From: Macrostomum lignano
Taxonomy: Eukaryota
DNA length: 38,470 bases
Direction of reading: 5' to 3'
Assembly (NCBI GenBank): GCA_002269645.1
Contig: NIVC01002071.1
Span: 1-38,470, forward strand
The notes beneath the pieces were generated by a model, which worked only from the letters and a program-made list of their open reading frames with translations, was not told the DNA's origin and searched no databases. The position numbers and the translations under genes are program-made. The number at the start of each line of letters is the position of its first letter. Within the stretch, counting starts at the first letter, position 1. Shown here piece after piece: positions 3,251-20,900 of the stretch.

Positions 3251-4152
3251 AGTAGTATAGGAAAAGTAGGTTTGAGCGCAACCCATTTTGAAAAATCACA
3301 AAAAACAGATAAAAATCGACTAAAAACAGGTGAAAATTGTCTGAAAACAGTGATTTTAGTGATTTTTCAAAAGTTTCGAAAAATTGCTTTTTGCGCGATT
3401 TCGTGAGTAAAACCACAAGAAATTTTTGATTCGTGGGTTAAAATAACCTATTTTCAGGTTTCATCATTTCAAAACTAGCATCAAATTTAATAATAGTCTT
3501 TTCTCCCATTGCATAACGCCCTTCAATAAGCCAATCTTACTAGCTTTGCTTTTAACGATCAGTCAGCTACCATCTATGCATAAAAATTGTCCACTCGAGG
3601 CATACAATGCTTTTACAAAAGTCAATAATTTGCTCCTGCACATTCGCTTTGTCCCGAGGCTTTGAAATGGCTTTAATGCTGTTCTAGATTTGTACTTAAA
3701 GATAATAGAAGACATTCAAGAACATGGAGCGCTAATTTAAATTTTTCGTGGCATGCATACTCGACTACTAGAGCACTAACCGCAGCACTCAACATTTCTA
3801 TTGGCTGCCAAAATTTCTGCCAAAACCAAAATTTTTGCCAAAATTTCTGCCAAAAAGTGTTTGGTTTTGGCATCCAATAGGAGTGGCTCGTGCAAATCTT
3901 TTGTGTTCACCCTCTATCTAGCTGTAAAAAAAGACATGAAGTGGGCCACGCAAGTTACAAACGAACAATGCTCTCGCGACCCTACCTACGGACGATTTCA
4001 CTAACCCTTTTCTAAATTATGTATCTTAAAAATGGAACAAATAGCAGGAGAAATTCTCCTCAAAGCAATTTTTATATTGTGACTCAGCTTTAACGTCGTG
4101 CGAAACCCACACTGAGTGAAGCGTATGGTCAAATAGGCTCTCGCAGGAACTC
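3251..4152 (+). repeat. Left terminal inverted repeat (902 bp)
   Basis: Starts AGTAGTATAGGAAAAGTAGG and ends TCGCAGGAACTC. Reverse complement of 19744-20645; mirrored ORFs 3673-3873/20023-20223 and 3801-4004/19892-20095 have identical translations. Confidence 0.97.
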
Positions 4153-4467
4153 TAAAAATTGGTCAAGGACAGCTTCCATTACACAAAGTTAAATCTAATT
4201 CACGTAAATCAAAATTGCTATAATGAAAATTAATTATAAAAAATTAAAAAAGATAACAGCTCCTTAAAATCCGTTTTTAGGATACACTTCGCATAACTTA
4301 TGCAAATAATAATAATGGTTTTGTATTTTAAATATTAAAGTAGTGATTATTAAAACAGTAACAAAAAGTCCTCAAACGCCTATGAAGAACAAAATTAAAA
4401 CATTAGAGCAATTTATTAATATTGACAAATTAGTCCATGATCGCCACAAGTCATCAATCATCTAGTT

Positions 4468-4959
4468 TTAGTTAGCTGATGAAGCAGCAGTGCCTCGGTT
4501 GTCAGCAGTGCCTCGGTTGTCAGCAGTGCCTCGGATGTCAGCAGTGCCTTGGATGTCAGCAGTGCCTTGGATGTCAGCAGTGCCTTGGATGTCAGCAGTG
4601 CCTTGGATGTCAGCAGTGCCTCGGTTGTCAGCAGCGATCTCATAGGGTGGTGGAAGGCTATCATCTTCAGTATCCAAATCACCAATCGCTTGCATGGCTT
4701 GAGCTTGGTTTTGATAGGATAGTGCAATAGCTTGCATGCTTTTTCTTTTTGCCACATTTTCCTTCAGAAGCTTCAGGAGCTTATCCTCCTCCGTAAAGGA
4801 CTTGAATGTATCTAAACCTTGTAGCTTATTGATTAGTCTCTCAGAACCTAGATCTGCAAATATAGTTAATGGCATGAGCCTTCGAATCTTTTGCTTTGTG
4901 AGTTCGAATTCCTTTCGATGATCCCTATATCTCTTGCGAAGTTCCTTTTCGGATGGCAT
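4468..4959 (-). CDS. Maverick accessory protein (163 aa) with PPPY motif and C-terminal GTADIQ/GTADNR repeats
   Basis: ATG-initiated ORF with a charged helical N-terminus, the motif SLPPPYE and a coding 18-bp tandem repeat. Confidence 0.6.
   Translation of the reverse strand: MPSEKELRKRYRDHRKEFELTKQKIRRLMPLTIFADLGSERLINKLQGLDTFKSFTEEDKLLKLLKENVAKRKSMQAIALSYQNQAQAMQAIGDLDTEDDSLPPPYEIAADNRGTADIQGTADIQGTADIQGTADIQGTADIRGTADNRGTADNRGTAASSAN
4485..4634. repeat. 18-bp tandem repeat x8.3 (CAGCAGTGCCTYGGWTGT)
   Basis: Read directly; lies inside ORF 4468-4959. Confidence 0.95.
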
Positions 4960-5675
4960 GTCTATTAAAGCTTTTTATTGTTGCAATGAATTTGGAGAGA
5001 ATTATCAGCCATCTTTCCAAATTCATTCCTGTATTAATATTATGTGAAAATACAAAAGCAGCGCATAACCTCAATTCTCATTGGTATCTCATTGATGACA
5101 ACCAATGAGAAAGCGACACCGGGTGAATGGAATGCAACTTTGCAGGCTCATGCCAGATGCAGAAAAAATTCTATCCACATGAGTCAGAATTGTAGTTACT
5201 TGAGATGCATGGCATCGCACTGCACAATGCACACTGAAAGAAACTATGTTCCTTTTTTCTTTAAAGCAGAATGACTCAACATTCTTTCTAGCTTTTCGCA
5301 TCAAGAATGAAGCAAAGCAACTAACCTAACCCTAACAGTTTAGCAGTTGAGTCAATAAGAATTTATTGTTCCTTTATCAATAGGTTTTGAATATCAGCAT
5401 GCTGCAGCAGGAATTGAGCACCTCTTAAACCCCAACTCTAAAGCACGGCCATGGCAGTTTTTTCTCTATTTTCATGACTCAGTGCGCATGTAAGAAGTCG
5501 CTTAGGTGGCTTGATAAAAACCCGCTTTAGTTTTGGAAGCAATACAACACACGTTTATCAGACAGACTAAAGCAAACAGAGTGAACATATAAATCACACA
5601 ACTCAGCAACAACGAAAAGGTAAGAAATAAGAGTTTTGTTCTTGTGTTGATTTTGATACTAGCTAAATAGTTATA

Positions 5676-6311
5676 ATGCCCTACATTTTAGAATCCCGTA
5701 TGGAGGCAGCAATGGCATCATTCGAATCCGACCTCGATAGTCTTATCAAGGAGATTTTTTGTAGTGGGGATTTAAAGCATTGTAAGAAATGGATAGGAGA
5801 ATATAACAAGGTTGCTAGAAAATTTAATAGGAAGAAGTTTGCTATTCCAACTTTTCGAGGTAGATTGGAGAGAGTGGACAAGACAAAGGAACGAATAGCA
5901 GAAGCTGCTAAAATACTGCGGGATTCGATGGAGCATCAAGAGCCGGGAGAGATTAATGAATTTATGGACGGAGAGTATCAATTTCAGGATGCAATTACAG
6001 AACTTAATTCCATTGATAAAATGATAAACGAGCTACAGTGCCGGGGCTTGCAGTATGGAATTAAGTCTGGTCAGATATTAATAAGAATGAAGCTTTCATT
6101 GAGTGACGAGGAGTATAAAGTATTTTTGTCTAGACTACGCTTTAAGTCCGCGTGGGGGAACTATTTAGTCCGAGTGGCTCGTCTAAGCACAGCACATCCA
6201 ATTCTGTGGCGTTGTGGCATCTCACTGTTTCGCCTACGTTCTATAATCAAGTACGCTGAGAAAGCCCTGGAGATGCTGGAGGAAGAGGAGGAAGATGCAC
6301 TTCTGATCTGA
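5676..6311 (+). CDS. Maverick hypothetical helical protein (211 aa) with acidic C-terminus
   Basis: Clean ATG-initiated ORF upstream of polB on the same strand. Function not recognised. Confidence 0.75.
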   Translation: MPYILESRMEAAMASFESDLDSLIKEIFCSGDLKHCKKWIGEYNKVARKFNRKKFAIPTFRGRLERVDKTKERIAEAAKILRDSMEHQEPGEINEFMDGEYQFQDAITELNSIDKMINELQCRGLQYGIKSGQILIRMKLSLSDEEYKVFLSRLRFKSAWGNYLVRVARLSTAHPILWRCGISLFRLRSIIKYAEKALEMLEEEEEDALLI

Positions 6312-6372
6312 TGAAAATCTTATTGCGCGCGTTGTGAATCATAACATCTGACTCTCATTATGCTGACTATTC

Positions 6373-6598
6373 TTTTTCACATCGAATACTGCAGTATCTG
6401 GTTCTTTTTTGCTCGTTGCTTTTTCACATCGAATACTGCAGTATCTGGTTCTTTTTTGCTCGTTGCTTTTTCACATCGAATACTGCAGTATCTGGTTCTT
6501 TTTTGCTCGTTGCTTTTTCACATCGAATACTGCAGTATCTGGTTCTTTTTTGCTCGTTGCTTTTTCACATCGAATACTGCAGTATCTGGTTCTTTTTC
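6373..6598. repeat. 47-bp tandem repeat x~4.8, each unit with palindrome ATACTGCAGTAT
   Basis: CACATCG recurs at 6378, 6425, 6472, 6519 and 6566. Confidence 0.95.
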
Positions 6599-6707
6599 TG
6601 CCTATTGTAATATCGCTTATACATTTCTAATTGCTTAATCCTGTGGATGCCACAATAAATTTATAACGTCATTACATAATTTTCCTGCTAAATTTATTTT
6701 ATAAAAA

Positions 6708-9700
6708 ATGGAACAACTCAGAAAGATGAGTGATGAAGAATTTGAACAATACATTCAAGCTGAGCGGTTTCGGCGTCAGCAGCAAAAGCACACAGATAAT
6801 GAGCCTATAGCGGAGTCCAAAGAAGATGAAGTGGCAGCTCCGCAGATTGGTGATGAAATAATACTACATAAATCCTTTAGAGAGAAGTATAATAAGAAGT
6901 CAGAAATTTCAGAGTATGTCATTAGGAATGTTAATGAAGGTTATATAACAAAGGTTTTTATTCAGTATGAAGATGCAATTAAAGCAGTGTTGGAGAAAGT
7001 TAGAGATGGTGGACGGAGTAAGTTCAACTTGCATTTTGAACTAGAATTCAAAAAGAATTTTAACGAAGACATTCCTCCATTCACAGTCTATGACAATGAA
7101 AGTGGATTCTACAATATTCAGTCAGATTCACAGTATGACACTGCCCTTAGCGAAAGACAGGAGACATTGGAAAAGTTCATTGATGAGTTCTGTGAGAAGG
7201 GATCAGATAATGTCTTTGTGCAGATAAAATCTATCTACATCAGAGTTGCCAAGGTTTCTAGCATTCAGGGAGGATCCTTCTTTACTAACAATGAAATTAA
7301 AAAATGTCGATCAATTCTTAACATTCAGAATGATGATGAGAAATGCTTCCTCTGGTGTGTATTAGCTGTTAAACATCCACAAAATAAAGATGGTTATCGA
7401 GTGTCAAAATATAAACCATATGAAAAAGAACTTAATCTCACCGATATCCAATTCCCCATGAGAATAAAAGATATAAAAAAGTTTGAAAGACTAAATGAAG
7501 AGTTTGCTGTTAATGTGCTGTATTATGAAGGTAAATTCCCAGATACACTACAACATCTCTATGTCTCACCTCATAATCAACGAACTTATGTAGTAGATTT
7601 ACTATACCTGGAGGAAGATGGTAACACTCATTATTGTCTGATAAAAAATCTTACAACATTAGTTTCAAAACAAACTGGAAAGCGTGTAAATCACAAGTCA
7701 TTTTTATGCAGAACATGCATGACTGTTTACACAAGTGAAAACGTGTTGGCCGAGCACTCAAGGTTGTGCGGTAAAAATGCACCCGGTCTTTATAAATTAC
7801 CTAAGGAAGAATCGAAGCTGAAATTTAAGAATCATATATTCAAACTAAAGCTACCCATCGCTATCTATGCTGACTTTGAAGCAACAACTGAACCCATTGA
7901 AGCACAAAGTAAAAGCTTCACTAAGATTTTAGACAAAGAGTCATATACTCTAAAAGTAGCAAATCAGAACGCAATAGCTTACGGTTTTTATATCCATTCT
8001 GAGTTACCCGAGGTAATTAAATCGAAGTATGAAGGATATTGTGGCACAGATGCCAAGGAAAAATATGTTGATAGAATGGTTGAAATTTATCAACAAATTA
8101 AGAATGGTCTGAAGGAGCCTAAGCATATTAATCATAATTTGACATCGCAAGAGGAGGCTTCTTTCTGTAAGGCTAAACAATGCTACATATGCGAGAAGGA
8201 GTTTGATATGGTTCCAGATATGAAGGTGCATGTGAAGGAAATTGACAGTAAAGTTACTATAGAATCTTGGTGCAAAAAATGTCTGAACAAGAGCAATAAT
8301 ATAAGTAAATATAAGATCACAAAGCAACAATGGAAAGAGTTTTACAGGGCTGAAAAATGTGCGAATTGTAAAAATGACTTTACACTTAAGCTAGGTAAGG
8401 TAAGAGAACATTGTCACTATAGTGGCAAATATAGAGGGGCTGCCTGTAAATCCTGCAATGCTCTCGAGAGTAAGAAGCGAGTAATCCCAATCTACTTCCA
8501 GAATGGATCCCACTATGACTTTCACTTCTTAGTGACACACTTAAAGAGCAAAGAGACCATGGAGGATAAATTATTTCCTCCACTATCTAAAACTTCTGAA
8601 GAGTACATTTCTCTCGAGTTTGGATGTAACAAAGTAGTACTGAGGTTCCTAGATTCATACAGGTTCTTGGCTTCCTCGCTGGATATCTGCGCAAAGTCCC
8701 TGAAGGATGAAGACTTCATCATAACAAAGAAATACTTTAAAAACGACAGCGATTTTCAATATGTTAAGCGCAAGGGTGTATTCCCATATGAGTATATCAG
8801 AAGCTTTGGAAGATTAGCAGAAACTGAGTTACCACCATTGAAAGAGTTTTACTCGAGGTTGAAAGGTGAAGACATTTCTTCAGATGAATATGATTTTGCA
8901 AAACAAATGTGGAAAACTTTTAATTGTAAGAATTTGGAGGATTATATGATGCTGTATCTTAAGGTTGACGTTCTATTATTAGCAGATGTATTCGAACGCT
9001 ATAGAACATTCTTCCTGAAACACTTTGAGATTGATCCAGCCAGATGCTTCTCAGCACCAGGATTGAGTTGGAATGCTGGGTTGAAGAAAAGTAAAGTTGA
9101 GTTAGACTTGCTGGCGGATATCGATATGATTCATATGATTGATAGTGGAATAAGAGGTGGATTTAGCGGAGTTCTAGGGTCACGATATGTAAAGGCAAAT
9201 AATCCTTATCTTCCAGGCTATGATTTAGAAAAACCAACTTCCTACTTACTTTACGTTGATTGTACAAATCTCTATGGTTATAGTATGTTGGAACCCCTTC
9301 CTTTTTCTGACTTTAAATGGGAAGCTGATTCCAACTATTATAAAAATCCTCCTGAAGGACGGGGCTGTCTTGTTGAATGTGATCTTGAATATACAAAAGA
9401 ATCAAAAAAGAAAACGTATGCCTTCCCATTAGCACCTGAAAGTACAACTGTGTCAGAAAGTGAATTGAGTGAATATCAGAAAGGATGTCTAGAAGTCGAA
9501 ATGAAAAAGATTGGAAAAGTTCCTAAATTGATCCTTAATTTAAAAAATAAAACAAAATATATCGTACATCATAAGCTATTGCGATTCTATGAAGAGATGG
9601 GCTTGAAAGTGACAAAAGTACATAGGACGATTTCATTCAATGAAAAGCCATGGTTAAAGGAGTATATCGAGTTTAATACGATAGAAAGAAAGAAGGCAAA

Positions 9701-10535
9701 AGAAGCAAAAATTGAGTTCGAAGACAATCAGTTCAAAATGCTTAATGTAAGCATCTTTGGCAAGACAATGGAGGATGTTAAAAAGAGAAAGCGATTTGAG
9801 TTGCTGACAAGTGAGGATGAGATATCTAAGATAATATCCAAGCCAGATTTCATAGACTTCAAAATCTTCAATGAAAATCTAATTTGCATTCACCAGCGAC
9901 CTAAGAATATCCCTCTTGGAACAAAGCCAACATACGCTGGACAAGCAATTCTGGATCTCTCGAAATTGCATATGTATGAAACATTTTACAAAGTTTTCAA
10001 GTCCAAATGGGGGGATAATGTTGAGATTGTTACCTCTGACACCGACTCATTCATTCTTCATATAAAGACAGAAAATATTTATAAAGACATTGCTCAGATG
10101 AAGGAGCATTTCGATTTGTCGCTGTATACTAAAAATTTTCCGATTGATTTACATGATATGAATAATTGTGGAAAGCTGGGAACATTCAAGGATGAATTGG
10201 CAAAATATGATTGCATAATGACAGAAGTAACCGCTCTAAGATCGAAAGCATATTCATTTAAAACAGTTTATGTCAGCACTCAAAAGGAAGGGAAGGAAGA
10301 GAAAAAATTAAAGGGAATCTCAAAGTCAACAGTGAAGCATCATGTACAATATGATGACTATAGAAATATACTACTTGATTATAACGAACCAGTCTATAGG
10401 AAAGTGTATAGCCTTAGATCAGACAAGCATAACATGACTTTAATAGAACAAAATAAGAAGGCTATTAGTCCTTTCGATGACAAAAGATACATTGAATCCA
10501 ATGGAATTATAACACATCCTCATGGATTCAAATAA
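6708..10535 (+). CDS. polB: Protein-primed family B DNA polymerase (1275 aa) with endonuclease VII-like Zn-binding insertion
   Basis: Exonuclease motifs YADFE, NGSHYDFHF and YLKVDVLLLAD. Polymerase motifs YVDCTNLYG, KMLNVSIFGK and SDTDS. Insert REHCHYSGKYRGAACKSCN; C2H2-like CRTC..HSRLC. Confidence 0.97.
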   Translation: MEQLRKMSDEEFEQYIQAERFRRQQQKHTDNEPIAESKEDEVAAPQIGDEIILHKSFREKYNKKSEISEYVIRNVNEGYITKVFIQYEDAIKAVLEKVRDGGRSKFNLHFELEFKKNFNEDIPPFTVYDNESGFYNIQSDSQYDTALSERQETLEKFIDEFCEKGSDNVFVQIKSIYIRVAKVSSIQGGSFFTNNEIKKCRSILNIQNDDEKCFLWCVLAVKHPQNKDGYRVSKYKPYEKELNLTDIQFPMRIKDIKKFERLNEEFAVNVLYYEGKFPDTLQHLYVSPHNQRTYVVDLLYLEEDGNTHYCLIKNLTTLVSKQTGKRVNHKSFLCRTCMTVYTSENVLAEHSRLCGKNAPGLYKLPKEESKLKFKNHIFKLKLPIAIYADFEATTEPIEAQSKSFTKILDKESYTLKVANQNAIAYGFYIHSELPEVIKSKYEGYCGTDAKEKYVDRMVEIYQQIKNGLKEPKHINHNLTSQEEASFCKAKQCYICEKEFDMVPDMKVHVKEIDSKVTIESWCKKCLNKSNNISKYKITKQQWKEFYRAEKCANCKNDFTLKLGKVREHCHYSGKYRGAACKSCNALESKKRVIPIYFQNGSHYDFHFLVTHLKSKETMEDKLFPPLSKTSEEYISLEFGCNKVVLRFLDSYRFLASSLDICAKSLKDEDFIITKKYFKNDSDFQYVKRKGVFPYEYIRSFGRLAETELPPLKEFYSRLKGEDISSDEYDFAKQMWKTFNCKNLEDYMMLYLKVDVLLLADVFERYRTFFLKHFEIDPARCFSAPGLSWNAGLKKSKVELDLLADIDMIHMIDSGIRGGFSGVLGSRYVKANNPYLPGYDLEKPTSYLLYVDCTNLYGYSMLEPLPFSDFKWEADSNYYKNPPEGRGCLVECDLEYTKESKKKTYAFPLAPESTTVSESELSEYQKGCLEVEMKKIGKVPKLILNLKNKTKYIVHHKLLRFYEEMGLKVTKVHRTISFNEKPWLKEYIEFNTIERKKAKEAKIEFEDNQFKMLNVSIFGKTMEDVKKRKRFELLTSEDEISKIISKPDFIDFKIFNENLICIHQRPKNIPLGTKPTYAGQAILDLSKLHMYETFYKVFKSKWGDNVEIVTSDTDSFILHIKTENIYKDIAQMKEHFDLSLYTKNFPIDLHDMNNCGKLGTFKDELAKYDCIMTEVTALRSKAYSFKTVYVSTQKEGKEEKKLKGISKSTVKHHVQYDDYRNILLDYNEPVYRKVYSLRSDKHNMTLIEQNKKAISPFDDKRYIESNGIITHPHGFK

Positions 10536-10537
10536 GT

Positions 10538-10843
10538 TTAAAAAACCAAACAATTCAATTGCTTAAGAAGTTTCTTGCGCTGATCATTAAACTCAACATA
10601 CTTCCTGATCTCTTTTATTTTTTTAACTAACTTGTCGATTTCATCTTCAATAAATGCTTCTGCAAAAACAATAGCAGTTTCAAGAAAACATTTGCGATCA
10701 CTTAATTTATCAATATATCCATAATCCGGTTCTATTATTCCACAATGTGTACGCACCTCCCTAAAGTTATTTATTTGTATTTCTCTATCAATGCGCTTTA
10801 TTTCATCTTGGTATGCATTTAGGAGAACTTTTATTGCAGCCAT
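10538..10843 (-). CDS. Maverick hypothetical protein (101 aa)
   Basis: ATG in AAAATG context. Last gene of the minus-strand block; its stop is 2 bp from the convergent polB stop. Confidence 0.65.
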   Translation of the reverse strand: MAAIKVLLNAYQDEIKRIDREIQINNFREVRTHCGIIEPDYGYIDKLSDRKCFLETAIVFAEAFIEDEIDKLVKKIKEIRKYVEFNDQRKKLLKQLNCLVF

Positions 10844-10868
10844 TTTCTAGAAAAAAAATTATACAATA

Positions 10869-11609
10869 TTAATTGTAGGGAGGTGCACTTGGAGCATTTG
10901 ATTGAAGATTGAGTGTTGCCGAGTACTCTTTTGGCTTATCAGCTAGACCCAATTTTTCTCTCAGATCTTTTTCTAGTAATTCCTTTTTAATTTTTTCCTT
11001 CGCTGAATGACCAAGTCTACTCTCTTTGAGGATTTTATCAACGACTTCCGAATGGTTAACTTCTTCAGGCGCAACACAGGCGTCTAACAATTGATCTCTT
11101 TTTTCTCTGTATTCTGAATAAATTGCAGCAGCTGCTTGAACCTCTTCAAGAGTTAATCTATAATCATCAACTGCTTTTTGGGAGTAAATATACAATCTCT
11201 CTCTATATTGATTTGCCAGATCTCTGAGAACAATGTATTTTGCCTTCTGCTTTTGGCAATGAATTTTCACAGTTGCAAACAACGACGTGGATTTTACAGC
11301 TTCAAAACCACTCATTGCCCCGATTACTACTCCAATAACTAAGGGATTCAATGTCAGTATCGATGTTGCTATGCCAATTCCTGTAGCAGCCAAGAGACTT
11401 ACATTTCCTGTCACAATGTTGATCCAATTTATCCTGCTACTTTGCCGTTTGTACTTTTTTACCTTTTTGCTATAAATTGTAAGATCTTTAGTAATGCATT
11501 CAATACTGCCTTTGATTTCACCCTTTCTCTGATTGAAATAGTCCCGCTCCCTCAAATCTGCTTCATGCAGCTCAACCACAGGATAGATGTGTTCATTTTT
11601 TTCATTCAT
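10869..11609 (-). CDS. Maverick membrane-associated protein (246 aa) with hydrophobic hairpin and C-terminal PSAPPY
   Basis: Hydrophobic stretch INWINIVTGNVSLLAATGIGIATSILTLNPLVIGVVIGAMSG, followed by KAVDDYRLTLEE. This recalls a recurrent Polinton membrane-protein family (from recall, unverified). TAAAAATG start. Confidence 0.8.
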   Translation of the reverse strand: MNEKNEHIYPVVELHEADLRERDYFNQRKGEIKGSIECITKDLTIYSKKVKKYKRQSSRINWINIVTGNVSLLAATGIGIATSILTLNPLVIGVVIGAMSGFEAVKSTSLFATVKIHCQKQKAKYIVLRDLANQYRERLYIYSQKAVDDYRLTLEEVQAAAAIYSEYREKRDQLLDACVAPEEVNHSEVVDKILKESRLGHSAKEKIKKELLEKDLREKLGLADKPKEYSATLNLQSNAPSAPPYN

Positions 11610-11611
11610 TT

Positions 11612-13021
11612 TTATGTGGCGATTATGTCTAAAATCGGATAAAGTTGAAAGCCTGAAACAATAAGAACGGTTGATCCTTCAGTGGCTGAATTAATATGCA
11701 CTCTATAAACAGAGAATTTTTCGGTGGAAGCTACTTCAAAATATTTCATGACTCCAGGAACTAAACCAGCGTTTTCGGTAGAAAAAATATTCCTAAAGTC
11801 TCTCTTGTTATTGCTCCCTTTCAGAATAAAACTTTTTGGTTGATTTTTTATAATTTCACTACCTACTGCTTTGGTTCCTTTCAATCCGAATTTCCAAATT
11901 TGAATAGACTCGGGAAGTTGTACTTCAATGTAAGAATTGGGTTCATTCCTCGATGCCCATTCTGAATTAGATACTATATAACCCCAATTATCTGACGTTT
12001 CAAATGCTCCTGATGACGCTACATTGAAACCCCTTTCTCTATAGTTTTGACGTGTTGCTAGTGAGGGAATATATCCTGTATAAGATTTGAAACCTAGTCC
12101 CCGCCTTAGTCGCAGCTCCACTGATTCAAGTGCATTGTCTACGTATAGCTTTGGTACAGCTTGAAGTCTATCTATAGGCCACACTAAATCATTAACCACT
12201 GTTTGTCTCTCAAGTAATTCAACTTTTGTAAGCTTTACGGAACCAGAAAAATTAAGAGAATAATGGAAATAATATGAGGGATTGGGTATTTTTTTCCTAA
12301 GATGTGCATTGCCCCTTCGTAGTTCAATGGGTGCACTTTGTTCAACAGGTGTCCAGTTTGTTCCATTTAGGCTCACACTAACAGACCAACCAGGCCACAC
12401 CTCTCCTTCCAACTTTATCTCTACAACTTTCCTAGCTCTTTTCAAAAATTGAAATCGTATCCACTTGTCTGAGTCATCTGCACTGCTCCAATCTGAAGCT
12501 GGGTTTGAATCTGCAACATGATATGCTGCTGAAGAGTTATGAGAAGCGGTCACTTTCATGTCAGAATGGGAAGCGTTTGAAGTCAGTAATGAAAGAATAT
12601 TGACTAATTTCGAACTCTCTGTACCTCCCGCAGTACCTTGCCATTCTGCTAACAAAGTGTCAATCTCAGTTTTAGAATACATCTTAGTGTCAATCTCAGT
12701 TTTAGAATACATCTTAGTGTCAATCTCAGTTTTAGAATACATCTTAGTGTCAGTTTCGGTTTTTGTGTAGACATTGTTTACGCGCCCATGAGCATCGTCA
12801 ATTAATTGTAGCATGGTGATATTCATTGCGTCACTATCTTCCTTTGAATAAGAGTCTGAAACATTTCTCTTTGCTAACAATAAATTATCTATTTCCTCTC
12901 TCTTATATCCTTCATTTTCATTGATGTATCGATCATCAGCTAACGCTATTGTTATTCCAGGTGCTATATCATTTGAATTTGACGAGTAACCAAATTGATT
13001 GGCAGTATTCTTGTAACTCAT
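11612..13021 (-). CDS. Putative fibre/receptor-binding protein (469 aa): YSKTEIDTKM repeats plus two discoidin (F5/8 type C)-like domains
   Basis: Tandem 10-aa repeats. Segments SDWSSADDSDKWIRFQF and SEWASRNEPNSYIEVQLPESIQIWKFGLKG..PKSFILKGSN follow the discoidin/galactose-binding fold pattern. Confidence 0.75.
   Translation of the reverse strand: MSYKNTANQFGYSSNSNDIAPGITIALADDRYINENEGYKREEIDNLLLAKRNVSDSYSKEDSDAMNITMLQLIDDAHGRVNNVYTKTETDTKMYSKTEIDTKMYSKTEIDTKMYSKTEIDTLLAEWQGTAGGTESSKLVNILSLLTSNASHSDMKVTASHNSSAAYHVADSNPASDWSSADDSDKWIRFQFLKRARKVVEIKLEGEVWPGWSVSVSLNGTNWTPVEQSAPIELRRGNAHLRKKIPNPSYYFHYSLNFSGSVKLTKVELLERQTVVNDLVWPIDRLQAVPKLYVDNALESVELRLRRGLGFKSYTGYIPSLATRQNYRERGFNVASSGAFETSDNWGYIVSNSEWASRNEPNSYIEVQLPESIQIWKFGLKGTKAVGSEIIKNQPKSFILKGSNNKRDFRNIFSTENAGLVPGVMKYFEVASTEKFSVYRVHINSATEGSTVLIVSGFQLYPILDIIAT
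12656..12775. repeat. 30-bp coding tandem repeat (3 near-perfect copies + 1 diverged)
   Basis: AGTGTCAATCTCAGTTTTAGAATACATCTT repeated; encodes YSKTEIDTKM on the minus strand. Confidence 0.9.
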
Positions 13022-13449
13022 TTTAATTGCTGCAAAATTTCGTTATAGCTATCTCCTTTATCGATTCGGTGTAAAAAGTACAGCGACATTTGACCACAAT
13101 ATTTCTTATCAAAAGTTTGAATTTGTTCTTCCATGTCTCCACATATTCTATTCTTTGTGTGATTAAACTTTTCCATAATTTCCAGTGTGGGCGGTAGTGC
13201 ATAGGAATCAAAAAAATAAACCTTATCAGGAGCTGAAAATATAGCTGAATGATGTATACCCCGTTCTTTCGAAGTGTGAATATTTGTCATAAAGTAACCA
13301 TACTGTGGTAAATCAACAATTTCATCTCTCATGGCATAGCGAAATGGTTTTAACTTGAGATATTTTGCCCAATTTATCAGATCAATATTAGTCGTAGTGT
13401 CAGTCCCAAACTTTTGTTTAAATGCATTCCATGTCTCAGCTTCGCTCAT
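13018..13449 (-). CDS. Adenain-like cysteine protease (143 aa)
   Basis: Catalytic order His (RGIHH), Asp (YFFDSY), Gln (QIQ), Cys (YCG). Start placed at the ATG in TAAAAATG (13449) rather than the upstream GTG. Confidence 0.92.
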   Translation of the reverse strand: MSEAETWNAFKQKFGTDTTTNIDLINWAKYLKLKPFRYAMRDEIVDLPQYGYFMTNIHTSKERGIHHSAIFSAPDKVYFFDSYALPPTLEIMEKFNHTKNRICGDMEEQIQTFDKKYCGQMSLYFLHRIDKGDSYNEILQQLK

Positions 13450-13458
13450 TTTTAACAC

Positions 13459-14249
13459 TCATATTTGTCGTACGTGTAGATTTATAAATATTTCCTCGCC
13501 ATCAAAGTCGTATAGAACACCAGACTCATCTTCGATGACAAAGTCGAATGTGCTCAACATGTTTGTAGTTAGTGGTAGGTACACAGGATTTGCAGGCTCT
13601 TGAATAATTTTACTTCCCATTGGGACAGAGAACGATGGAATTGAAAGAAGTATTTGCTTATCAATTAAATGATTTCCATTAGCTGGATCAGTGATAAACC
13701 CCCTTTGATATTTAGACAACGAACCATGATCGCACTTCTAGCTCCGTCTATCCGAGCTGGATTTGGAGCTCTCTCAAATGGTTTCAAATACACTTCCGAA
13801 TTGAATCCCAACAGTCTTCTAAAGTTATTGGAATGTGCATCCCTGAAATCAACTTGATAATCTGTGGCTAACCGTAACTCAACTCTACGCGTGTCTAGGC
13901 TTGCACTGAAAACAATAGCCCCCTCTTTCCAATCATTTGCAGCTGTTAGCAATCTTTGAATCTCGCTTGACAGACTTTTAACTTCCCAAGATCCCGCTTG
14001 AATCTTTATTTTTTTCCATGTTCTACCACTATCCCTCGAGTATCGCAACTCATTATTGCCTCCTTCAATATTGTTAATAGCATCAAAGACTGCAAACTTT
14101 TTTATACCAGCTTCGTATTCTCGATCTTCATACAAATTTATAGGAGTGCCTAGAGTTTGTCGAAATGGGTTTTTAATTGAAAAGAAGTCAAATGTGCGTT
14201 GAAACTTTTTACTCAAGAGGATGTTGACTTTTTCTATTTCTTTTTCCAT
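13459..14249 (-). CDS. Minor capsid (penton-like) protein, split by one frameshift at ~13696-13703
   Basis: ORFs 13665-14249 and 13459-13719 join as IMVRCLNIKGG-FITDPANG if one base is added in the GGGGGTTT run. C-terminus PVYLPL..DFDGEEIFINLHVR fits Polinton minor capsids. Confidence 0.8.
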
Positions 14250-14268
14250 TTTTAAGCAAGTAATTCTG

Positions 14269-14981
14269 CTAGCTCTTTATCAACATTATTATGTCCTTCT
14301 GCTTGGCGGCTAATAAAGTTAACACTCTTTCACTGAGTCCAGATCCCGGTTTTACTCGATATCCTGGTGGATTATCTTTCAATATCCTTACTGCTTGCTT
14401 ATAATTCCCACTTGATTTGGCCGCTGGATTTTTACAATGTTCAATGATGTTAACATAATCCTGCAATGTTTGCATCTTGAATTGCTTCAGCTCTTCACCA
14501 TTTTCAGTTACTTTAGGCATTTTGAACAACTCTTCAAGATCTTCAGAAAATGGCATTCGAAATTCGTTGACAATGATGTCTCGACCTTGTTCATGGAATT
14601 CAACATCTATTACAGATGATCCAAATATATATCCAGCATCAGTTTTTTGAATCCGTATACTAGGCGCTGGTCTTTGAGTTATTGGAATCTTTCCAATTTC
14701 TTCAATTATTTTGTCAAATACTTCTAGGGTTCAAATCGGCCTTTTGGTGTACTTGATTGCGGAACTGGAACTTTTTGATTCTGAAGTTTATCAACAAGGT
14801 TGGCATTGACATCAATAAATTCATCGAGCTTTTCTGTGACAGGTTTTTGAGCTAATGGAGCCACTCTTGCATATAAACTCTCTTCTCCAATTTTCAAATA
14901 GCGTTGAGCATCATTTCTGGATTTGTACATTTCTCGCTGCTTTGCTAAATTAATGAGTTCTCTTATATATTCATTAGTCAT
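14269..14981 (-). CDS. Conserved Maverick hypothetical protein (~237 aa), split by one frameshift at ~14727-14729
   Basis: Adding one C to GAA CCC TAG gives KGRFEP-LEVFDKIIEEIG...YIFGSSVIDVEF..DIIVNEFR, open and in frame into ORF 14269-14556. Confidence 0.7.
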
Positions 14982-14983
14982 TT

Positions 14984-15757
14984 TTACAATGGGATTTTAG
15001 TTAGAACATCCTTATACAAATCTTGCTCATCCTCATCAGCTCTTGTATTTATATAGATATAGCCATACTTCTTTTTCCAAGCCTCTCTACATTTAGCCTT
15101 GAATATAGCGGGTTCATAATTCGTTTCTATATTTCTAGCAATGTGATTTAAGTTTGTATCTTTTTGTTTAAAGATTATGTAACATGTCGTATTCTCCCTG
15201 ACAGTATTGCGATCTAGTTTGGTAAAATTTTGAGCTAGATAAAAACCACAACAGTTTCCATGCCTGCCTCTCTGAAACAGACTTTCCTGAAATGTTTGAT
15301 TAGCCTCTCCCAAAACATCATCCAATATCACACATGTCTTTAGTCCATTATGAAAAATTTCTTCATTTGGAGTATGGGAAAGAGTGACAGGAATTTTCTC
15401 TATTACTTCTGAATTTTCTGATGTGCTTTGCACTCGACCAGGGTTGGCTGCCTCTCGACAAATATGTCTAATATCTTCAGGAGATGCATCCTCACTCACC
15501 TGGTAGACATGATAGAGTGAGTTGATAAGAGAAGGTGGGAGACCATTTTCAAAGCCATATTTTAGAAACTGATACTCTGGATCCATTTGAGATGCTCTGG
15601 GAACATATAAAACTAACTCATTAAAGTCAACTAGTTTTTCAGGACTTGTAAGAATATGGAATAGTAAATATGTTTTACCCGTATTTGTAGCGCCGATAAT
15701 ACAACATAAAAGAGGATTAGGGAAAATAGGATCATGCCGAAATTTTACTTTGGGCAT
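14984..15757 (-). CDS. A32-like (FtsK/HerA) genome packaging ATPase (257 aa)
   Basis: Walker A GATNTGKT, Walker B VILDD, RGRH..FYLAQ and RENTT motifs. Confidence 0.95.
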   Translation of the reverse strand: MPKVKFRHDPIFPNPLLCCIIGATNTGKTYLLFHILTSPEKLVDFNELVLYVPRASQMDPEYQFLKYGFENGLPPSLINSLYHVYQVSEDASPEDIRHICREAANPGRVQSTSENSEVIEKIPVTLSHTPNEEIFHNGLKTCVILDDVLGEANQTFQESLFQRGRHGNCCGFYLAQNFTKLDRNTVRENTTCYIIFKQKDTNLNHIARNIETNYEPAIFKAKCREAWKKKYGYIYINTRADEDEQDLYKDVLTKIPL

Positions 15758-15778
15758 TTAAAAAAAGAAAAAATGACC

Positions 15779-17143
15779 TTATTCGACGCGGGTCATTTGA
15801 TATTCACTGGTAACTTTTATTACATTCTTTGTTTGTTCAAGAATTAGTGCAAAAGCAGTCAGCTCAACATTAGTTGACTTCTTGATAAATAATTGAATAT
15901 TCACTCCACTCTTGACAAGAAACTCATCCTGAGCTGTTAGATCAAAGCAGAATATTGGATAGATTGTTAGAAAGTCTTGTTTATTAAATGGTGGAGTTAC
16001 ACCGAAACGGCTGCAGATGTCCTCGTACATTTCATATGCTCTGTGAATGTCTTGAGCTACTGGATCAATTTCAACATAATCATTCGGATACATCACCTGA
16101 TTTAATCTGACTTGAAGCTGGGTTATTTTCACTGCATTTGCTCCAGTTTTGTAAGACACATACTTGTGATCATTAACTATATATGATGGGTTGTTTACGT
16201 CATATTTGAAAGCTACAAAGATTGCAAGTGGCATATTGGAGATGTTGGCTATGTTCCATGTATATGGACTTCCTTGAATGAGTTGTGGCGGAACCGTTAC
16301 CCTCTCTGGAAATGATACTGTAATGTCCTTGTTGAGTGATTTTAGAAAAGCTGCTTCAGCACTGGGTGACAAAGTAATAGCAGGGATCCAAATCTCAAAG
16401 CTATTAATAGTTAACTTAGCTTCCGTCCCGGCAGCTCCAAAGAAAATTTCAGCATCGTTAGTCTTTCTTGTCCATGTGAATTTATATTTAATTCCTTTGC
16501 TAATCTTCTGCCAATCAAGGAACCCAATGAGGGGTGTTAATGATAGTTTGATTGTTCCACCTCTGTTTGGAGCATTAGTGACATTGTTATAATTTTCAAG
16601 CCTCCTAATGTATCCAGTATTCGAATCCTTCTTATTGAGTCTATTTTTCATAGCGATTGCTGCAGTTCTCACAGCTTCAGCATCTGCGTTGTTTGCTAGA
16701 GCTATATCAGAAACAGTCCCAGCATCTCCAGTGTCTGGAATCCATCCGTATGCTTCTCCAACTTCATTCATCAATTTTGAGTACATTACGGACTTTAAGA
16801 TTGTGTCATACTCTCCAGGATCATTATAGACTTTCTTTGTTCCTCCAATGTCAACTATGAGTTGAGAGAAAAGTCTCATAGGCCAATTATGTTCTAGAGT
16901 AATGTTCGTATTCAAGTCGGTGTTATCTCGTTGTGTTATTGAGTATTTTATACAACCGAATGCCTCTGACATGAGAATGTATGACTCTGTTGAATTGACT
17001 TCATGAACTATTTGACCTCCTGCAACATTGAGATTATTAGTGCTACCTGGTGTTGGAGAAATCTTAATATAGTCTTCTTTCTTTTTGAAAAAGCTAAAAG
17101 TTTTGTCCTCATATAGGTTCAGTATATCCTTTTTGTTCTCCAT
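15779..17143 (-). CDS. Major capsid protein (double jelly-roll, hexon-like; 454 aa)
   Basis: Size, position next to the ATPase, beta-rich composition, and motifs NWPMRLFSQ, LTPLIGFLD, PLAIFVAF and YPIFCFDLT typical of Polinton capsids. Confidence 0.88.
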   Translation of the reverse strand: MENKKDILNLYEDKTFSFFKKKEDYIKISPTPGSTNNLNVAGGQIVHEVNSTESYILMSEAFGCIKYSITQRDNTDLNTNITLEHNWPMRLFSQLIVDIGGTKKVYNDPGEYDTILKSVMYSKLMNEVGEAYGWIPDTGDAGTVSDIALANNADAEAVRTAAIAMKNRLNKKDSNTGYIRRLENYNNVTNAPNRGGTIKLSLTPLIGFLDWQKISKGIKYKFTWTRKTNDAEIFFGAAGTEAKLTINSFEIWIPAITLSPSAEAAFLKSLNKDITVSFPERVTVPPQLIQGSPYTWNIANISNMPLAIFVAFKYDVNNPSYIVNDHKYVSYKTGANAVKITQLQVRLNQVMYPNDYVEIDPVAQDIHRAYEMYEDICSRFGVTPPFNKQDFLTIYPIFCFDLTAQDEFLVKSGVNIQLFIKKSTNVELTAFALILEQTKNVIKVTSEYQMTRVE

Positions 17144-17163
17144 TTTTATACGAGAAATTTCAA

Positions 17164-17616
17164 CTAAGCTTCGTGAGGTCTAAGAATTATCCCATTACCC
17201 TGTTTCTCCTTTTCAACTTTAAAAGTCTTTAGCAGCCACTTGACTGCTTCGCTGGGTACTTGTTCGACTCTTTTAGCCGCATCAACTAACACTCCACTCC
17301 CTTGAGCCTTTTTCAACTCTTCTAGTTTTTGTCGTTCAATGCTTTCTATTGTCTTATTATGCTTAGCATTGTTGGCTGTATTAACACTTTTTGCAATCAT
17401 TGTACCAACTCCGGAGGCTGCTCCGATACCACCCAATATTGCTGGTAGTAAGCCTAATAGAGGAATTATTCCACCTTCATGTTCTTTCTGTTTCTCTTGC
17501 AATTCTCGAATCTTCTCTTTAGAAAGATATTGCTTTTGCTTATTTACAGTAACATATCTTGGTTTTCCCTCTCGAACATATCGATTGAGTCTTGCTTCAG
17601 TGTTTTTCTCGCTCAT
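17164..17616 (-). CDS. Putative virion core protein precursor (150 aa)
   Basis: Basic N-terminus, then HEGG-IIPLLGLLPAILGGIGAASG hydrophobic Gly-rich segment, plus QGSG and QGNG motifs. Adjacent to the major capsid gene. Confidence 0.7.
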   Translation of the reverse strand: MSEKNTEARLNRYVREGKPRYVTVNKQKQYLSKEKIRELQEKQKEHEGGIIPLLGLLPAILGGIGAASGVGTMIAKSVNTANNAKHNKTIESIERQKLEELKKAQGSGVLVDAAKRVEQVPSEAVKWLLKTFKVEKEKQGNGIILRPHEA

Positions 17617-17624
17617 TTTTAAGG

Positions 17625-18047
17625 TCAGAATTTCTTCAAACCATTGCCTTGTCTCAAAGACACTTGAGACTGTTCTGCTGTTCCTAGAGCCTTTTTAACA
17701 ATATCTTGAATAGCCTTATTTGATTGAGAAGCTATCTGTTGCTCTTCTTCCATTCTTTTCTTTGCTTCTTTATCTCTACGTTTCTTTTTAATATATTCCA
17801 GTTCCTCACCTGCTTTAGACATGTCACTGTATGATTTCTTCGCATCGAATATGTTCTTCGCTGTGGTAGCTGTTTTACCTATTGCATCAGCTCCACTCAC
17901 AATTTTACTTCCATGATTTGATAAAAAGTTTGTGACACCACTGATCATATCACCAATTCCTTCACCCTCTTTATCAGCTAGTAGTTGTGAATCAGACGTT
18001 TCAATCTGACCTTTCGCCCGTTTGCAGTTTGTTCGATAGGCGCTCAT
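17625..18047 (-). CDS. Putative virion core/membrane-active protein precursor (140 aa)
   Basis: Start at TAAAAATG (18047, MSAYRT). EGEG is followed by amphipathic IGDMISGVTNFLSNHG, then a K/E-rich coil and terminal QGNGLKKF. Confidence 0.7.
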   Translation of the reverse strand: MSAYRTNCKRAKGQIETSDSQLLADKEGEGIGDMISGVTNFLSNHGSKIVSGADAIGKTATTAKNIFDAKKSYSDMSKAGEELEYIKKKRRDKEAKKRMEEEQQIASQSNKAIQDIVKKALGTAEQSQVSLRQGNGLKKF

Positions 18048-19354
18048 TTTTAGTTGAAAAATTTGCTGGTAGAAGCTGGGATTTGTAAAATGATCCAATG
18101 ATTTCTTCTCCATTCTCATCCTCAATAATGTAGGTTATGGGATTGGAGTAAACTATTTTCTTTATCCTAAACACTTCTGAAATTTTCCAATATCCTCTTC
18201 GACCCTTTTCAAAGTGCTCCTTATATCTATAGATATGAACTTTGTCACCTACTTTGAAGTTTGGTTTCTCATTTGAATACTCGAAAGTTGGCTTTGGTAC
18301 TCGCTCAGGATGTTTAGATGCTTCTGAAGGAGTTATCAGAATCTCAGAATGGATTGTGTTGTTGTATTTTTCAACAATAGCTGGCAATGTGTGGAGCCAC
18401 TTCTGATTACCCTGTAGATCGAATTCAAACCAGAGTTTATTTGTGAGAGTACGATTGAACCTCTCAATCATTGCATTCTTAGACTCACCATAAATTGAAA
18501 CATCTTGTTAATATACTCCCCTTTCATCTTTCTTTCTATGTCGTCTTTTGAAAACGAGTATAGCTTGTACATATGCTGATTATAAAACTCCTTGCCTTCA
18601 TCTACACAAAGTCTCTCTGATCGTCTTCCTGATTCCTTAAATACTTTTTGGAAAGCTTCTGCAACTTCCGCTCCCGTCTTTGTTTTTAAAGGAACTGCCC
18701 AGGCGTAACGTGTAAAACCATCTATGATAGTGAGAGCATATTTGTAACCTCTTTCGGGTGGTAGGATAATGATATCTGCATGCCAAATTGTGTCTTTTGC
18801 ATAGTGAATCATTTTTCTAAACAGTCTTGGTTTTCTATATTCCCTATGCAATTTTACTGCATCTTCATAGCTAAGACCCTTACCATAAATTGTTAGACAG
18901 TCTATACAATTGTTGGGGTTGTGAGTATGAATTCCTAATCCAAACCGAACTTTAGCATTGATAATACGCTTTATTAGATTTCTAATGAGTCTCTCCTTTA
19001 CCGACAAGTCGCTGGTTGGAATAGCATCTAAATCAGCTATCATTTTTTCATCAGCAATATGCTTCTTTGCTAGGGCTTCCTCTGGAGTTGAAGACGTCTT
19101 TTCAGCATCTCTATAGCTTTTGTCATGATAGTAAGCAGTCCAATCAATTGGATTAATTGGTAGACTATCATACCGAGGCCAGTCTGTAATTGGATTGAGT
19201 CTCTTGTCTAAATTTGTACCTGGGCCAGTGAAAGAATACCCTGGAATATGAAATTCGCCAGGATATTTTCCAGTGCGAAGATGGGTGGTAGTTTTGTTAT
19301 AGCTGACTGAATATCCAATGCAGAACCTAGAAATAATGGTTTACTGAAGGCCAT
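18001..19354 (-). CDS. PLA2-integrase fusion: parvovirus-type phospholipase A2 domain plus retroviral-type (rve) DDE integrase; frameshifts at ~19283 and ~18498
   Basis: Frame upstream of ORF 18468-19043 stays open and reads HIPGYSFTGPGT..PINPIDWTAYYHDKSY..ADEKM. DDE residues in WHADII, CVDEGKEF and IERFNRTL. ATG at 19354 in TAAAAATG context, one frame off. Confidence 0.85.
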
Positions 19355-19387
19355 TTTTATAAAAATAAATTTAAGTAATCTACAGAC

Positions 19388-19590
19388 TTAGGCTGCGTTA
19401 ACTGCTGTAGCAATAGAGCCTGCTGCTGCACCTGCCTGTTCTATGAAAGGTAGATTTGTCTTTTACTAAGTTGGATATGGTGCTTATAGTATCAAAAAAG
19501 ACCTTCTCCATTATACTCTAGTGGTTCGCCTATTGTATAGTCTCTTATCTTGCATGATTCTGTAACGTGGTGCGCTTCGTGTCTTTTTAG
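19388..19590 (-). pseudogene. Disrupted paralogue of the 17625-18047 core protein
   Basis: With several single-base indels it reads YNGEGLFDTISTISNLVKDNLPFIEQAGAAAGSIATAVNAA, parallel to EGEGIGDMISGVTNFL..ADAIGKTATTAKN. Confidence 0.45.
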
Positions 19591-19726
19591 AAAGGGGGTG
19601 AACACAATAGACTAGCATGAGACGCTCCTATTGGTTGCCAAAACCAAAACTTTTTTGGCAGAAATTTTGGTCGCAAGATTTGGCAGAAATTTTGGCAGCC
19701 AATAGCAATGTTCAGTGCTGCGGTTA
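19575..19726. repeat. Diverged direct copy of a TIR sub-region (CCAAT/TTGGCA cluster)
   Basis: gggtgaacacaa..ctcctattgg.tgccaaaaccaaa..ttttggcagaaattttgg..ggcagccaatag..gtgctgcggtta matches ~19955-20119. Confidence 0.85.
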
Positions 19727-19743
19727 TGTATAGTTAGTTTGGT

Positions 19744-20645
19744 GAGTTCCTGCGAGAGCCTATTTGACCATACGCTTCACTCAGTGTGGGTTTCGCACGA
19801 CGTTAAAGCTGAGTCACAATATAAAAATTGCTTTGAGGAGAATTTCTCCTGCTATTTGTTCCATTTTTAAGATACATAATTTAGAAAAGGGTTAGTGAAA
19901 TCGTCCGTAGGTAGGGTCGCGAGAGCATTGTTCGTTTGTAACTTGCGTGGCCCACTTCATGTCTTTTTTTACAGCTAGATAGAGGGTGAACACAAAAGAT
20001 TTGCACGAGCCACTCCTATTGGATGCCAAAACCAAACACTTTTTGGCAGAAATTTTGGCAAAAATTTTGGTTTTGGCAGAAATTTTGGCAGCCAATAGAA
20101 ATGTTGAGTGCTGCGGTTAGTGCTCTAGTAGTCGAGTATGCATGCCACGAAAAATTTAAATTAGCGCTCCATGTTCTTGAATGTCTTCTATTATCTTTAA
20201 GTACAAATCTAGAACAGCATTAAAGCCATTTCAAAGCCTCGGGACAAAGCGAATGTGCAGGAGCAAATTATTGACTTTTGTAAAAGCATTGTATGCCTCG
20301 AGTGGACAATTTTTATGCATAGATGGTAGCTGACTGATCGTTAAAAGCAAAGCTAGTAAGATTGGCTTATTGAAGGGCGTTATGCAATGGGAGAAAAGAC
20401 TATTATTAAATTTGATGCTAGTTTTGAAATGATGAAACCTGAAAATAGGTTATTTTAACCCACGAATCAAAAATTTCTTGTGGTTTTACTCACGAAATCG
20501 CGCAAAAAGCAATTTTTCGAAACTTTTGAAAAATCACTAAAATCACTGTTTTCAGACAATTTTCACCTGTTTTTAGTCGATTTTTATCTGTTTTTTGTGA
20601 TTTTTCAAAATGGGTTGCGCTCAAACCTACTTTTCCTATACTACT
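19744..20645 (-). repeat. Right terminal inverted repeat (902 bp)
   Basis: Starts GAGTTCCTGCGA and ends CCTACTTTTCCTATACTACT; same length as the left TIR. Confidence 0.97.
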
Positions 20646-20900
20646 TGCGGCGCTAATATGAGTGCCTGCGGCGCCAATATGAGTGCCTGCGGCGCTAATA
20701 TGAGTGCCTGCGGCGCCAATATGAGTGCCTGCGGCGCTAATATGAGTGCCTGCGGCGCCAAAATGAGTGCCGATCCGGCCCCAATATGAGTGCCTGCGGC
20801 GCTAATATGAGTGCCTGCGGCGCTAATATGAGTGCCTGCGGCGCCAAAATGAGTGCCGATCCGGCCCCAATATGAGTGCCTGCGGCCCCAAAATGCGCAC
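20646..20900. repeat. 21-bp minisatellite x~12 (TGCGGCGCYAATATGAGTGCC) with two 23-bp variant units
   Basis: Begins at the first base after the right TIR. The pair gccaaaatgagtgcc + gatccggccccaatatgagtgcc occurs twice. Confidence 0.95.

Follow-up and report, generated by a model that had tools for sequence, protein, structure and literature searches.

A conserved, widespread PLA2-integrase fusion of Polinton elements, carried by a frame-broken copy in Macrostomum lignano

A phospholipase A2 (PLA2) domain joined to an rve integrase is a real, conserved and widespread fusion, carried here by a frame-broken copy. The copy lies in the window, a stretch of 38,470 nucleotides from Macrostomum lignano, within a Polinton/Maverick element (Table 1). 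A stop-free minus-strand frame from 19340 to 18471 encoded 290 amino acids (P0001). It held both Pfam Phospholip_A2_4 (E 1.5e-8) and rve (E 1.4e-10), each above the cut-off, and the PLA2 domain shared this frame with the first two catalytic Asp residues of the integrase. The first-pass annotation had described the domains as fused in frame, with no stop from PLA2 to the rve core. This held through the first two Asp residues; the gene as a whole is broken twice and is not one open frame, and the core breaks before the catalytic Glu (~18495-18540). The same annotation had stated that the ORF track missed the gene, which it did because the ATG at 19354 lies in a different frame from the PLA2 core, with a break at ~19270-19280.

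The landmarks of the PLA2 domain were the GPG loop from 19226, His at 19125-19127, Asp at 19122-19124, Tyr at 19113-19115 and a second Asp at 19050-19052. The His/Asp pair had been placed at 19122-19127, which we confirmed, and the linker read as quoted. The translation of the 5' segment resembled, by eye, the N-termini of the relatives P0004 and P0027, and the ATG stood in the context AAAAATG, as in other genes of the element. The PLA2-integrase junction of the window was in frame, and no slippery site was found by eye in its linker (18846-18929). In agreement with the first reading, Pfam gave no chromodomain in the window integrase, and no HHCC set was visible by eye. Of the relatives whose sequence extends into the C-terminal domain, 6 of 24 fused versus 39 of 113 unfused proteins had a chromo-like motif; absence of the chromodomain is common among relatives. 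The His/CxxC segment between two Gly-x-Gly motifs was also present in P0003, P0005, P0006, P0007, P0026-P0028 and P0072, and was missing in P0004, a close relative; an excised peptide and a small metal site are both conceivable. At the 3' end, the integrase frame (18001-18066, minus strand) extended about 20 codons beyond the end in P0003 and P0027. This extension overlapped the start of the next gene at 18047, and a contig of public run X1 was identical over 18001-18066.

Table 1. Features of the fusion gene and of its host element in the window
Feature	Position	Strand	Remarks
PLA2-integrase fusion gene	18001..19354	-	Two frame breaks as assembled
5' segment: ATG and conserved N-terminal helix	19275..19354	-	Out of frame with PLA2 core
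Parvovirus-type PLA2 domain	18933..19274	-	Pfam PF08398; confident helical model
Gly-x-Gly-hydrophobic motif closing the PLA2 domain	18930..18941	-	Candidate protease site; putative cleavage
Linker, clade-specific His/CxxC segment and second Gly-x-Gly (from 18884)	18846..18929	-	
rve core, first part	18498..18845	-	Asp 18774-18776, Asp 18600-18602; break ~18495-18540
Rest of integrase core and beta-rich C-terminal domain	18001..18497	-	Glu 18463-18465; C-terminal domain ~18067-18267
Complete Polinton/Maverick (alpha-adintovirus-like) element	3251..20645	.	17.4 kb; termini AGTAGT / ACTACT
Left terminal inverted repeat	3251..4152	.	
Right terminal inverted repeat	19744..20645	.	
Double jelly-roll capsid protein	15779..17143	-	Pfam PF21738, E 1.9e-13, above cut-off
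A32-like packaging ATPase	14984..15757	-	Pfam PF04665, E 1e-5, above cut-off
Probable penton (minor capsid protein)	13459..14249	-	Frame-broken near 13690 as assembled
Putative adenain-like cysteine protease	13018..13449	-	Open frame; His, Asp, Gln/Cys motifs by eye
Putative protein-primed DNA polymerase B (PolB)	6708..10535	+	1275 aa, open; polymerase motifs by eye
pX-like membrane-active protein, stand-alone ('X' half of PLA2X)	17164..17616	-	Likeness by eye to PLA2X C-termini
Small ORF, putative core protein	17625..18047	-	Two Gly-x-Gly motifs

The PLA2 His, Asp, Tyr and second Asp were invariant in 44/44 fused relatives, which had been selected with a PLA2 profile. Of 11 locus pairs, 10 had a PLA2 dN/dS of 0.035-0.16, and the remaining pair had saturated dS. 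The invariant residues suggest that the PLA2 is active, as had been supposed. Models of the domain reached pLDDT values of 88.7 and 85.8. The top structural match, a rice PLA2 (rank 1 of 48,161 chains; Z 7.4, rmsd 3.8, 89 aligned), tied in Z with unrelated helical rows and was within the noise for helical domains. An entomopoxvirus PLA2-like protein was a structural match at E 4.3e-4, and Foldseek, run with the PLA2 model against the PDB, returned nothing at E of 0.001 or below. For the integrase half, the model of a relative matched retroviral and MELD virus integrases, the mavirus integrase was a structural match (E 2.7e-14), and a profile search of solved structures returned integrases only.

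The stretch from 3251 to 20645 was taken as a complete element because it has terminal inverted repeats (902 nt, 100% complementary), a GC content lower than that of the flanking DNA, and the gene set of Table 1. Polinton target-site duplications are 6 bp long; the 6-nt flanks of this element agreed at 4 of 6 positions, so a perfect duplication was absent. This concerns the insertion itself or its assembly, and family membership is unaffected. The D,D,E residues of the integrase were all present (PF00665), the Glu lying past the frame break. Neither the penton nor the protease ORF had a Pfam match; a three-frame reading of the former resembled, by eye, a printed adintovirus penton, and the relative P0021, a protease-integrase fusion, gave a weak Peptidase_C5 match (E 7e-4). 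The only Pfam match of the PolB ORF was Endonuclease_7, which is also given for Maverick PolB in Table 3 of PMC5803895. The pX-like ORF, which holds four Gly-x-Gly or Gly-Gly motifs, was itself one seed of the pX profile, and the match of that profile to it is not independent.

Several other features were observed in and around the element. A fibre-like ORF (11612-13021, minus strand) with 10-aa repeats and F5/8-type carbohydrate-binding domains is a candidate attachment protein. Just inside the right end, part of the terminal repeat was duplicated (19588-19726 / 19976-20119, 86-96% identity). A 21-nt tandem array (20648-20900) abutted the right end, with a related unit on the left side at 2853-2882; the element may have landed in this repeat or next to it. 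A GPCR and CUB domains in the flanking DNA, together with a DDE transposase and the remnant of a retroelement, mark the host as an animal; the transposase, of Tc1/mariner type, is an open frame of 355 aa at 26045-27112 (minus strand).

Both breaks of the fusion gene fell outside the PLA2-integrase junction. The second lies inside the rve core, and the catalytic Glu and the C-terminal domain follow in a further frame (P0002). Together, P0001 and P0002 covered the full length of P0027, an intact natural relative of 423 aa, with 75% and 72% identity. Introns at the window breaks were rejected, as the two pieces abut on P0027 without extra sequence, and programmed recoding at the 5' break was rejected, as P0004 and P0027, both close relatives, keep the frame at that point. 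At least four frame breaks were counted in the element: two in the fusion gene, one in the penton (~13690) and one in the gene upstream of it, near 14725. PolB, ATPase, capsid and protease were open as assembled, and the terminal repeats were identical.

We compared the window with contigs from public sequencing runs. Contigs from four runs crossed the junction (18900-19050) without gaps (X1 records 3-5, which are overlapping pieces, X3 record 9 and X6 records 21-22). At the core break, all three covering runs showed indels relative to the window in nearly all of the depth. At the 5' break, an indel was seen in all depth in two runs and in most depth in a third, with about half of the depth unaccounted for in the fourth; contigs omit rare variants, and the window alleles may persist at either break. 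The breaks are probably assembly errors, which we consider more likely than true lesions; that the window copy is freshly dead is a lesser but appreciable possibility.

The fusion was then found well beyond this copy. Both Pfam domains were present in 11 of 23 first matches. A profile built from 13 fused proteins matched 42,337 representatives at 50% identity. Of the best 150 clusters, 115 lacked PLA2, and the others carried it N-terminally (32), in partial form (2) or C-terminally (1); the ranking favours fusions, so that 32/150 is not a prevalence. ESM Atlas clusters with both families had 184, 111 and 72 members. The metagenome scan covered the best 80 of 349 matches. Among 90 fetched loci, 47 were fused in one frame, 27 had PLA2 immediately upstream of rve, with a break, 8 had PLA2 elsewhere and 8 had no PLA2 (6 of those near a contig edge). 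The first-pass annotation had stated that a widespread, already described fusion would not be novel, and this largely applies: the fusion is widespread, and two adintovirus proteins already bear the label 'PLA2-Integrase' in the supplement of a preprint.

On a 147-row integrase tree, the fused proteins required 16 changes, compared with 34.5 for shuffled labels, and a one-clade topology was rejected (p-AU 0.00016, on 47 rows selected once the tree was known). The fused proteins are thus clustered yet scattered on the integrase tree, not one clade. Gains and losses of the fusion are indistinguishable on this tree, and some 'unfused' rows are perhaps mis-started. The PLA2-integrase link was kept at 30-50% identity. 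Other arrangements were also observed. P0079, P0083, P0105 and P0021 were protease-integrase fusions, and P0144 was an integrase-chromo-PLA2 fusion with a C-terminal PLA2; P0079 and P0105 grouped with the PLA2-fused P0018 (SH-aLRT 99). In one clade (L026, L028, L029, L035-L038, L040 and others), a protease gene lay directly upstream of, and abutted, the PLA2-integrase gene. Gly-x-Gly was seen by eye at the junctions of the four protease-integrase fusions and of one integrase-PLA2 fusion. The grouping of P0079 and P0105 with P0018 suggests that the N-terminal partner of the integrase is swapped at the Gly-x-Gly site. pX was a separate gene in 15/15 fused or adjacent cases where it was found (window included), and in the same ORF as PLA2 in 6 of 8 stand-alone loci.

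The PLA2 end followed the pattern K-x-[KR]-x-G-x-G whether the domain was fused or stand-alone, and in the fusions a variable linker came next. The first Gly was conserved in 40/44 and the second in 35/44 fused relatives, and both were present in 9/9 stand-alone PLA2s. G-x-G-hydrophobic closed the PLA2 domain in 33 of 44 fused relatives, whereas their integrase parts contained it once in 10,428 residues; the former count used a slightly broader pattern than the latter, and the motif definition was drawn post hoc from these sequences. Within the element, the 150-aa pX-like ORF held four copies of the motif and its 140-aa neighbour two, with one occurrence in the 1275 aa of PolB and none in the ATPase or the capsid protein. 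Immediately after the motif, pLDDT fell below 50. The PLA2 and rve profiles were separated by a median of 9 and up to 69 residues (44 fused proteins), and no conserved sequence was found in the linkers after Gly-x-Gly. Adenain cuts precursors at Gly-containing sites, with the consensus (M/I/L)-x-G-x↓G or (M/I/L)-x-G-G↓x according to the passage seen in PMC7998265. The window site, a G-x-G with Arg at P4 (Lys in most relatives), fails the adenain P4 rule, and that consensus may not be the specificity of the Polinton protease. The motif may also be simply the conserved end of the PLA2 fold, as stand-alone PLA2X has it.

The polyprotein idea of the first-pass annotation gains indirect support from the junction Gly-x-Gly, which is conserved, recurs in the putative core proteins of the element and precedes a poorly ordered linker. 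We propose, with a probability of about 0.6 and on sequence evidence, that the gene encodes a virion-core precursor of two enzymes that would be cut by the element's protease at Gly-x-Gly. The PLA2 half, a proposed virion component as stand-alone PLA2X, would carry the integrase into the particle, and the adenain-like protease would cut at Gly-x-Gly during maturation. Upon entry, the freed PLA2 would help to breach the endosomal membrane, and the pre-packaged integrase could insert the genome without new gene expression. The window lineage would make a constitutive fusion, with PLA2 and integrase at 1:1; in other lineages, -1 recoding at an A-rich junction may yield an excess of PLA2 and a minority of PLA2-integrase. 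A review (PMC6723459) reports that the mavirus integrase is packaged in particles, and in its relevant passages describes the mavirus protease only as processing the capsid protein. A putative lipase was found in PgVV particles (bioRxiv 2022.07.28.501842), and the accessible part of bioRxiv 068312 contained no further packaging precedent. One literature passage states that no animal Polinton virions have been observed so far.

The relatives provided a lead on recoding. Of the 27 adjacent loci, 15 had the integrase in the -1 frame and 2 had it in +1 (binomial p 0.002); when near-copies were merged and L004 was dropped, the counts were 13 versus 2 (p 0.007). The other 10 kept the frame of PLA2 but were interrupted by stops or internal breaks. 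An in-phase slippery heptamer stood in the short frame overlap of 11/15 -1 loci versus 0.5 expected and 5/47 in-frame junctions, a count confounded by A-runs of Lys codons; the canonical site was absent from the overlap in L068, L001, L004 and L076. The first AUG of the integrase frame was downstream of the first catalytic Asp in 12 of 13 checked -1 loci. The -1 state was clustered on a 72-row tree (8 changes versus 13.1; 0/500 shuffles), on which degenerate loci were scored as in frame, with no group assigned to L004 or the two +1 loci. It was also shared by pairs at dS near 1 (L087/L088, L068/L076), in which purifying selection acts on both domains. Away from the junctions, 183 A/T runs of at least 6 in the same genes contained only 8 frameshifts. 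For runs of at least 7, a hand count gave 11/14 shifted at junctions versus 1/26 internally, a contrast inflated because internal breaks are selected against. Mean z for 3' RNA structure (pseudoknot-free model) was -0.84 in 10 loci versus +0.26 in 47, and strong structure was confined to L079 (-4.5) and L044 (-2.7). At L079 (1-6005), tandem PLA2/integrase/protease blocks were observed, with the strongest hairpin after the slippery site, and the same junction was present in L082, from another assembly. As for introns at -1 junctions, no fitting GT..AG candidate (>=20 nt) existed in 3 of 13 loci, and the other 10 had candidates of varied length; introns there are a weak but conceivable explanation.

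The -1 offset, the slippery heptamer and the lack of a usable AUG suggest Gag-Pol-like recoding in relatives. Alternatively, A-run errors may explain the offsets. The junction A-run, which derives from the Lys-rich tail of PLA2X, is also a hotspot of error and mutation, and degenerate loci occur among those in -1. L022 and L024, 92% and 86% identical to L089, keep the frame with 8-9 As. The PLA2X-protease junction behaved similarly at long A-runs, being -1 in L003, L006 and L008, +1 in L007 and in frame in L005 and L009. The PLA2X-into-protease arrangement of L003 and L005-L009 matches the 'PLA2X-Adenain' labels in the Buck 2024 supplement.

Other accounts of the fusion itself were weighed against the cleaved precursor. 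That it is an assembly or gene-calling artefact, or an accident of a dead copy, is very improbable: at least four frame breaks in the window element speak for it, but none falls at the junction, where the gap-free contigs refute an artefact, and intact fusions were found in 47/90 loci and in the three Atlas clusters. A second account keeps the two-domain enzyme uncut, so that the attached PLA2 would act on endosomal or nuclear membranes within the genome-integrase complex. The strict P4 rule is unmet, many linkers are short (the median of 9 residues), and P0144 has its PLA2 at the C-terminus, all of which would suit such an enzyme; we nevertheless regard it as decidedly unlikely, given that linkers reach 69 residues without conserved sequence past Gly-x-Gly and that the motif is retained in most fusions. 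The N-terminal partner is, moreover, sometimes a protease, for which a packaging tag fits better than joint activity.

A passive merger would need no delivery function. The boundary between neighbouring genes would have been lost, the old PLA2X cleavage site would free both halves, and the PLA2 may serve egress, not entry. The scatter of the fused proteins (16 changes on the 147-row tree; p-AU 0.00016 on the post hoc 47-row subset) and the 115 of 150 top-scoring integrases without PLA2 agree with a merger of this kind. It is unlikely on balance, since the integrase AUG lies past the first catalytic Asp in 12/13 checked -1 loci, which makes the integrase dependent on PLA2 translation, and since the link is kept across 30-50% identity.

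Retroviral Gag-Pol is a structural precursor that brings enzymes into the particle; their release is the task of the viral protease, and -1 frameshifting sets the ratio. The precursor proposed here would resemble it in the carrier role and in release by a protease, and perhaps, in some relatives, in the -1 frameshift. It differs in that the carrier is unrelated, the virus is a DNA virus, the protease is a cysteine and not an aspartic protease, and the window junction is in frame. Mavirus virophage is similar in its rve integrase, reported in the particle, and its cysteine maturation protease; its lipase, as described, is a separate Lipase 3 protein, whereas the window has a PLA2. The window PLA2 has the GPG loop, the His-Asp...Tyr...Asp set and the Pfam family (PF08398) of parvovirus VP1u PLA2, a likeness judged from sequence; the parvovirus domain is described as tethered to a capsid protein, and that of the window is tethered to an integrase. 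PLA2X of alpha adintoviruses (group 2 Maverick-Polintons) shares the PLA2 family, the catalytic residues and the K-x-K-x-G-x-G end, but carries a pX-like domain C-terminal to PLA2, whereas pX in the window is a separate ORF (17164-17616). Passages in PMC8502044, PMC5803895 and bioRxiv 10.64898/2026.06.19.733378 propose PLA2X as a membrane-active virion protein.

The fusion is already in public annotation and has apparently not been analysed. Adinto15303 and Adinto6405 are labelled 'PLA2-Integrase' in supplementary file 2 of Buck et al. 2024 (PMC11071296 / bioRxiv 2024.03.25.586562). As far as that file presents them, they resemble the window gene in an N-terminal parvovirus-type PLA2, a K-x-G-x-G end and then the rve integrase; unlike them, the window clade adds the His/CxxC linker and the window copy is frame-broken. 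The supplement also lists at least four 'PLA2X-Adenain' proteins, among places 3-32 of 59. In the available main text of that paper, 'PLA2' does not occur, three 'fus-' passages concern other genes, and possible -1 frameshifts are mentioned for penton and hexon-adenain only. PLA2X is described in Starrett 2021 (PMC8502044), in text that contains neither 'fused' nor 'fusion', and the covered part of one supplement file gave map labels only. PLA2 is treated as a gene or domain of such elements, unlinked to integrase, in the relevant passages of Yutin 2013 (PMC3671162), Yutin 2015 (PMC4642659), Geisler 2018 (PMC5803895), PMC11296320 and bioRxiv 10.64898/2026.06.19.733378, and 'lipase' does not occur in the available text of PMC11161782. 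In the main-text passages covered, we found no account of a PLA2-integrase fusion or of a junction frameshift.

The value of the result lies in the breadth of the fusion, the shared cleavage-like motif and the recoding lead, and not in this copy. We tentatively suggest, at somewhat less than even odds, that animal-type Polintons converged on the logic of retroviral Gag-Pol, in which PLA2 or PLA2X, as an abundant membrane-lytic core protein, would carry integrase or protease into the particle as Gly-x-Gly-cleavable fusions, and lineages would toggle between constitutive fusion, the state of the window copy, and programmed -1 recoding at an A-rich junction that sets a low integrase:PLA2 ratio. 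If this is true, many Polinton integrases are annotated from the wrong internal AUG. A recurring PLA2-integrase precursor would bear on how Polintons enter cells and deliver integrase to the incoming genome, and the resulting model, with co-packaging, cleavage at a named motif and frameshift control in some lineages, is testable.
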